Assembly: GCF_001677475.2 (NCBI RefSeq)
Contig: NZ_CP015229.1
Direction: 5' to 3' (one strand)
Origin: Escherichia coli
Lineage (GTDB): Bacteria; Pseudomonadota; Gammaproteobacteria; Enterobacterales; Enterobacteriaceae
Length of the DNA: 64,000 bases
The notes beneath the pieces were generated by a model. That model had not been told where the DNA came from. It worked only from the letters and a program-made list of their open reading frames with translations, and did not search any database. A program made the translations under genes and the position numbers. Positions 44,036-44,480 of this stretch are shown here, one piece after another. The stretch's first letter is position 1; each line of letters starts with the position of its first letter.

Positions 44036-44107
44036 AGCGACCTCTACAGTAAATAATTCGTTATTTATATGTTAATAATAAGTAATGTTTGCGCTGTAAA
44101 TGTAGAT

Positions 44108-44123
44108 TGCAGGGTTCGTGCCA
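44108..44123 (-). promoter_or_regulatory. Sigma-54 (-24/-12) promoter of the ast operon
   Basis: Minus-strand TGGCAC-gaacc-CTGCA (GG and GC at the canonical spacing), about 70 bp upstream of the astC ATG. Confidence 0.55.
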
Positions 44124-44480
44124 GCCAGTGATAAAAGTGCATAAACGGCGGAGGCTAACTGGAAATCAAGGAGTTATAACCAAACCATATGCATTTAAAG
44201 TGCATATAAAGTGAATACGTTTGCGATGTGGGTGAATAAAAAGAATAAAAAACGCAATGTTATGCAGAAGTAAAATATAATTCTGGAATTGTGATCATTG
44301 ACGAAATTTACTGGAAATTACTGCGCCATTCTGACGCAGCGCGCACCAAAAGCGGGCATTTTTTGCGCCATCGTTGACATCATTAACAACCATCGATCAA
44401 ATCACTTAACAACAGGCGGTAAGCAAAGCGAAATTCTGCTACCATCCACGCACTCTTTATCTGAATAAATGGCAGCGACT

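Follow-up and report, generated by a model that had tools for sequence, protein, structure and literature searches.

At glnAp2, the NtrC enhancer lies at -108 and -140. The control region of the astCADBE operon of Escherichia coli K-12 (astCp) was reportedly studied by Kiupakis and Reitzer (2002, J Bacteriol 184:2940), who are also credited with direct NtrC binding at the astC control region, and the ast operon promoter of Salmonella enterica is said to have been the subject of a study by Lu and Abdelal (1999). The ast operon is induced by nitrogen limitation via NtrC (PMC4066584, PMC3844500, PMC3037356), and it is stated to have one sigma-54 and one sigma-S promoter (PMC4014581), the sigma-54 promoter being called astCp2 in papers derived from EcoCyc. 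One study characterizes astCp as a weak sigma-54 promoter to which ArgR binds naturally (bioRxiv 10.1101/086108), and the role of ArgR at ast is accessory, not essential (PMC3037356; bioRxiv 10.1101/086108). The regulators listed for ast include CRP (PMC3590144), and Ernst et al. credit Kiupakis and Reitzer (2002) with an IHF DNase I footprint at astC (PMC2266799). In Salmonella enterica, the orthologous element TGGCACGAATGCTGCAAT stands at an equal distance from astC, was bound in the ChIP-chip data of Samuels et al. (2013) and was assigned to NtrC (PMC3844500); the promoter is NtrC-dependent and ArgR-activated in this organism (PMC3844500, PMC3037356). What is said below about binding of sigma-54 and NtrC, dependence on ArgR and sigma-S, and the IHF footprint is based on the cited literature.

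We analyzed the corresponding region in a 64,000-nucleotide stretch of E. coli DNA, referred to as the window. Very probably, the region controls the arginine succinyltransferase operon astCADBE, and NtrC and sigma-54 act here together with a loop containing IHF and ArgR and with a sigma-S promoter. It has the same locus, sigma-54 motif, divergent xthA and regulator set as the K-12 control region. Among 5426 complete E. coli genomes, 5424 have a full-length match to a segment of 701 bases around the promoter, and in 5294 the identity is at least 99%. The genes annotated beneath the match are astC (succinylornithine transaminase) and, at the opposite side, xthA (exodeoxyribonuclease III). In a genome that is 100% identical, spy and astEBDAC lie on one strand, and xthA, ydjXYZ and ynjA-E on the other. 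The astC–xthA spacer differs from that of K-12 MG1655 by a single base, at window position 44427 near xthA (T in the window, G in K-12), which is outside all of the elements mapped in the spacer, and we find no functional difference between the two regions. Therefore, work on K-12 applies directly to the window. To convert a window position to K-12 coordinates, 1,787,947 is added for NC_000913.3 and 1,785,971 for U00096.2, the older numbering on which the ChIP papers rely.

For comparison across species, we used 80 astC loci from different species of Enterobacteriaceae, including Escherichia, Citrobacter, Salmonella, Enterobacter, Klebsiella, Raoultella, Buttiauxella and Cedecea. Forty-three diverse spacers were aligned and their columns scored, and published consensus sequences were then scored at each aligned position (z). 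The sequence elements that emerged, with their positions, are collected in Table 1, and their conservation was observed directly in these alignments. An earlier note, made from the sequence alone, had taken the spacer to begin at 44036 and to be shared divergently with xthA. This start agrees with the end of the astC coding sequence, and the two genes do lie on opposite strands (astC minus, xthA plus), an arrangement found in most of the 80 loci, with a spacer length of 423-448 bp. The right edge given at that time, 44468, falls just before an upstream in-frame ATG at 44469; because this ATG is not conserved across species, 44481 is supported as the true start of xthA. The description of the upstream DNA as AT-rich holds for positions 44036-44320, where the GC content is 33.7% compared with 50.4% for the whole window, but not for positions 44321-44372, a GC-rich island of 52 bp (59.6% GC) that contains the NtrC-type sites.

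Table 1 Mapped features of the astC–xthA spacer and its borders, in window coordinates
Feature	Position	Strand	Details
astC coding sequence	42815..44035	minus	spacer begins at 44036
Predicted sigma-54 start, an A	44097	minus	12 nt downstream of the -12 C (44109); from -24/-12 geometry
Sigma-S-type -10, TCTACATTTAC	44106..44096	minus	C at -13; hexamer TACATT 44104..44099
Sigma-54 -24/-12 element, TGGCACGAACCCTGCA (TGGCAC-N5-CTGCA)	44123..44108	minus	GG 44122-44121, GC 44110-44109
IHF consensus site, TAACTCCTTGATT (consensus YAANNNNTTGATW)	44176..44164	minus	centre ~-73
Candidate ArgR operator, two 18-bp ARG-box-like sequences 3 bp apart	44210-44227 + 44189-44206		centre ~-111
Best single ARG box, AGTGCATATAAAGTGAAT	44199-44216		overlapping register; 12.1 bits
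Second conserved ARG-box-like sequence (TGCATAA / TGAATAA core)	44251-44268		~-162
Lrp-like match	44271-44285		13/15, z 3.5
Invariant block, AAATTTCG-N5-GATCACAATTCCAGAATTATAT	44272-44309		most invariant spacer stretch outside the promoter
CRP-like site, TGTGA-N6-ACGAA	44290-44294 (TGTGA), 44301-44305 (ACGAA)	plus	centre ~-200
Proximal NtrC-type dyad, TGCGCC-ATTCT-GACGCA (plus-strand letters)	44322-44338		centre ~-233
Distal NtrC-type dyad, CGCACC-AAAAG-CGGGCA (plus-strand letters)	44342-44358		centre ~-253
xthA annotated start (MKFVSF...)	44481	plus

The sigma-54 promoter of astCADBE is real and is sited where the earlier note had put it, in an exact sequence that is correctly placed for astC. 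TGGCACGAACCCTGCA is oriented toward astC and lies upstream of it, with 73 nt between its near end and the ATG of this gene. The element matches the consensus at 10 of 11 positions, and its GG and GC dinucleotides lie one helical turn apart within TGGCAC-N5-TTGCW. By itself, the -24/-12 match is weak evidence and is not statistically compelling: TGGCACGAACCCTGCA is the one match to TGGCACN5YTGCW in the 64-kb window, 0.29 are expected by chance, and at least one match was present in 26 of 100 shuffles. A count of this size, which is not significant, would also be compatible with a chance or non-productive sigma-54 site, astCADBE being driven only by the overlapping sigma-S/sigma-70-type promoter. 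Many E. coli sigma-54 ChIP sites are indeed non-productive or intragenic (PMC4591121), the overlapping sigma-S-type -10 is conserved, and astCp has been called weak (bioRxiv 10.1101/086108). We nevertheless regard a chance or idle site as exceedingly unlikely. TGGCAY-N5-[CG]TGCA is found in 80/80 loci, at a distance of 87-92 nt upstream of the astC ATG as measured from the 5' end of the motif, and the GG, the GC and the distance between them are invariant in all 80 while the five bases of the element's internal spacer vary, an argument against chance. The cross-species mean score is 9.93/11 (z 5.4, 43 spacers), and conserved NtrC-type dyads lie upstream.

Published binding data agree with this position. 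In K-12, sigma-54 ChIP-seq yielded peak OS17 at 1830088, with the motif CTGGCACGAACCCTGCA centred at 1830087 (Bonocora 2015, PMC4591121), and this centre converts to window position 44116, the middle of TGGCACGAACCCTGCA. OS17 lies 62 nt from astC and is marked as a previously confirmed promoter (PMC4591121), and astC is among the experimentally confirmed RpoN promoters (PMC8743547). The NtrC-dependent induction under nitrogen limitation likewise speaks against a non-productive site, as does the rpoN- and ntrC-dependent transcript that the literature, as cited, already reports to start some 12 nt beyond the GC element. Thus, it is the position of the sigma-54 element, its conservation and the literature, not the motif alone, that lead us to judge it real. 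From the -24/-12 geometry, we predict that transcription starts at about 44097, and the resulting predicted 5' UTR of 62 nt (44097..44036) equals the distance to the gene given in PMC4591121.

The sigma-S-type -10 overlaps the flank of the sigma-54 -12 element, and the block TGCAATCTACATTTACAG is nearly invariant across species. TCTACATTTAC has 9/11 matches to KCTAYRCTTAA and a cross-species mean of 8.74 (z 4.5). We infer that it is the -10 of the sigma-S promoter stated for ast, from which a start at about 44092 is predicted.

NtrC sites had been expected in the AT-rich DNA upstream of the promoter. Two conserved NtrC-type dyads are present upstream, at 44322-44358, but they lie in the GC-rich island, not in AT-rich DNA. 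Each matches TGCACC-N5-GGTGCA at 9/12 positions in E. coli and so carries three mismatches, and matches of this kind are frequent by chance across the window. Motif scanning, which the earlier note had proposed as a check, is at chance level for NtrC in the single genome: the consensus has 27 matches in the whole window compared with 34.7 expected, a result that is uninformative alone. The dyads do stand out in the 43-species footprint, with cross-species means of 8.26/12 for the proximal dyad (z 4.4) and 8.65/12 for the distal dyad (z 4.7), and the assignment to NtrC therefore rests on conservation. Measured between centres, the two dyads are separated by 20 bp and face the same side of the helix, the pattern expected of an NtrC enhancer. 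In the alignment, many relatives have a perfect TGCACC half-site at the position of the distal dyad, and an additional conserved half-site, GGCGCA, lies at 44364-44369.

We considered whether the dyads could instead act at the divergent promoter of xthA, where they might for instance be an operator for a repressor, with NtrC binding nearer the astC promoter. They are located about 100 bp upstream of a conserved xthA -10-like element at 44437-44445. NtrC has been placed in the astC–xthA spacer at low resolution by ChIP-seq (PMC4066584) and gSELEX (PMC8743547), and the published ChIP-seq interval, 1830021-1830101 (PMC4066584), corresponds to window positions 44050-44130, on the promoter and about 250 bp from the dyads. 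However, the same table places its intervals for nac, ddpX and yeaG on or close to the sigma-54 promoter as well, in a hand comparison with the motifs of PMC4591121. For this reason, we take the offset to be inherent in the dataset; it suggests either crosslinks made via the loop or a convention in how the PMC4066584 table gives its coordinates. The fit of the dyads to TGCACC-N5-GGTGCA, the perfect half-sites in relatives and the paired arrangement on one helix face also argue against an xthA operator, and the 43 spacers contain no comparable conserved NtrC-like dyad nearer the promoter, where the next best match (z 3.2) overlaps the promoter itself. Taken together, a role of the dyads at xthA in place of astC is very unlikely, and we retain them as a putative NtrC enhancer.

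On the xthA side, the conserved block 44431-44456 (plus) contains, some 36 nt ahead of the xthA ATG, the extended -10-like element TGC-TACCAT (44437-44445), which is likely the xthA promoter. A perfect TTGACA at 44375-44380, followed by a 17-nt spacer and TCAAAT, was dropped as a candidate for this promoter because it is not conserved. A sigma-54-like match near xthA (44437-44452, 7/11) was rejected, as it is without the -12 GC.

Besides the NtrC and ArgR sites anticipated by the earlier note, the region also contains IHF, CRP-like and sigma-S elements. The IHF site matches 9/9 positions of the consensus core WATCAANNNNTTR in E. coli and has a mean of 8.95/9 in the 43 species (z 5.3).

ArgR sites were searched for with the ARG-box consensus WNTGAATWWWWATTCANW, taking two 18-bp boxes separated by 3 bp as the canonical operator, and with a position weight matrix built from nine K-12 operators (argECBH, argI, argA, argR, argG, carAB, argD, artJ and artP), whose training boxes range from 8.4 to 21.7 bits. 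Scanning the single genome for the ARG-box core gave 36 matches compared with 29.2 expected and is uninformative alone. With the matrix, the proposed scan recovered one clear single box (Table 1), but the best canonical pair in the E. coli spacer reaches 9.3 bits, which is within the range of shuffled sequences (95th percentile 11.4). The ArgR sites foreseen upstream nonetheless have a candidate operator at 44189-44227, since the best spacer pair maps to this aligned position in 25/43 species, with scores of up to 23.5 bits; in S. enterica subsp. arizonae, the pair scores 13.6 bits, above the value for E. coli. Judged from these sequences, the ArgR operator is probably genuine but degenerate in E. 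coli, and it is easier to recognize in relatives; its degeneracy fits the accessory role of ArgR (PMC3037356). The second ARG-box-like sequence has a cross-species median of 7.5 bits and reaches 5 bits or more in 84% of species, with 5.2 bits in E. coli.

The invariant block at 44272-44309 is explained only in part. Its CRP-like site combines a perfect TGTGA half with a weak ACGAA half, matching TGTGA-N6-TCACA at 7/10 positions and the CRP 22-mer consensus at 13/22, with a cross-species z of 4.4-4.6, and 44290-44305 may be a binding site for CRP. The CRP-like, Lrp-like and weak ARG-box matches account for only part of the conservation of the block, which exceeds what NtrC, ArgR or CRP-like matches would require. 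That it binds a further regulator, or combines CRP, Lrp and ArgR sites in one composite element, which may be undescribed, is a tentative idea that we hold to be rather unlikely; if true, the block might link the regulation of astC to that of the divergent xthA, or act as a gate on the NtrC loop.

A natural IS1 insertion falls exactly within this block. In E. coli VL40 (NZ_CM177011.1), a human stool isolate, the astC–xthA spacer is split by an IS1A element, and 9 bp (44300-44308) are duplicated at the site. The insertion interrupts the CRP-like site and leaves the NtrC-type enhancer displaced about 0.8 kb from the astC promoter.

Within the 62-nt astC leader (44036-44097, minus), TTAACA at 44075..44070 and ATTTAC at 44053..44048 are invariant in the 43 species, and the leader has weak ARG-box-, IHF- and CRP-like scores. 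A generic scan for sigma-70 promoters and terminators showed nothing relevant in the spacer, and matches to the Nac pattern ATA-N9-TAT there were discarded as weak and AT-driven. The Rfam search of 43800-44700 supported no RNA element; a match to the Salmonella mgtC_leader at 44255-44366 (plus) scored 21.4 bits against a gathering threshold of 48 (E 0.13) and was set aside as a chance match in AT-rich DNA.

From the order of these elements, we propose how the region would work. On TGGCAC-N5-CTGCA (44123..44108, minus), sigma-54 RNA polymerase would be held as a closed complex. When nitrogen is limiting, phosphorylated NtrC would occupy the dyads about 233 and 253 bp upstream (44322-44358), contact the polymerase by looping out the AT-rich DNA of about 200 bp and use ATP to open the promoter, with transcription then running from about 44097, 62 nt ahead of the astC ATG. 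IHF, at about -73, would bend the loop, and arginine-bound ArgR would wrap DNA at about -111, with a further box at about -162. ArgR and IHF would thus act as architectural proteins that shape the loop, and for that reason arginine-bound ArgR would raise expression ('superinduction') and not be essential. The overlapping sigma-S-type -10 may provide a second, stationary-phase promoter with a start a few bases downstream. The pairing of each block with a protein, the exact starts and the geometry of the loop are our inferences in this scheme.

The astCADBE promoter region is long known and experimentally characterized in a model organism, and nothing in it is new. The mapped architecture matches what later papers attribute to Kiupakis and Reitzer (2002), and the footprint of 43 species recovers the NtrC, IHF and ArgR architecture given in the literature. 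The locus can thus serve as a calibration case, in which a sigma-54 promoter was recognized from sequence alone, without tools, and it is a good example of a sigma-54 activation loop tuned by the metabolite-sensing ArgR together with IHF.

Compared with its Salmonella enterica orthologue, the E. coli promoter shows three differences between the -24 and -12 elements. With the classical NtrC-dependent promoters glnHp2 and glnAp2, astC shares an upstream pair of dyads, a -24/-12 promoter and activation by looping, and it resembles glnHp2 in being a weak promoter with an architectural protein bound within the loop (bioRxiv 10.1101/086108). The astC enhancer, at about -233 and -253, is more distant than that of glnAp2. 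Unlike glnAp2 and glnHp2, the astC loop carries an IHF site together with the amino-acid-sensing ArgR, and a probable sigma-S promoter overlaps the sigma-54 promoter.
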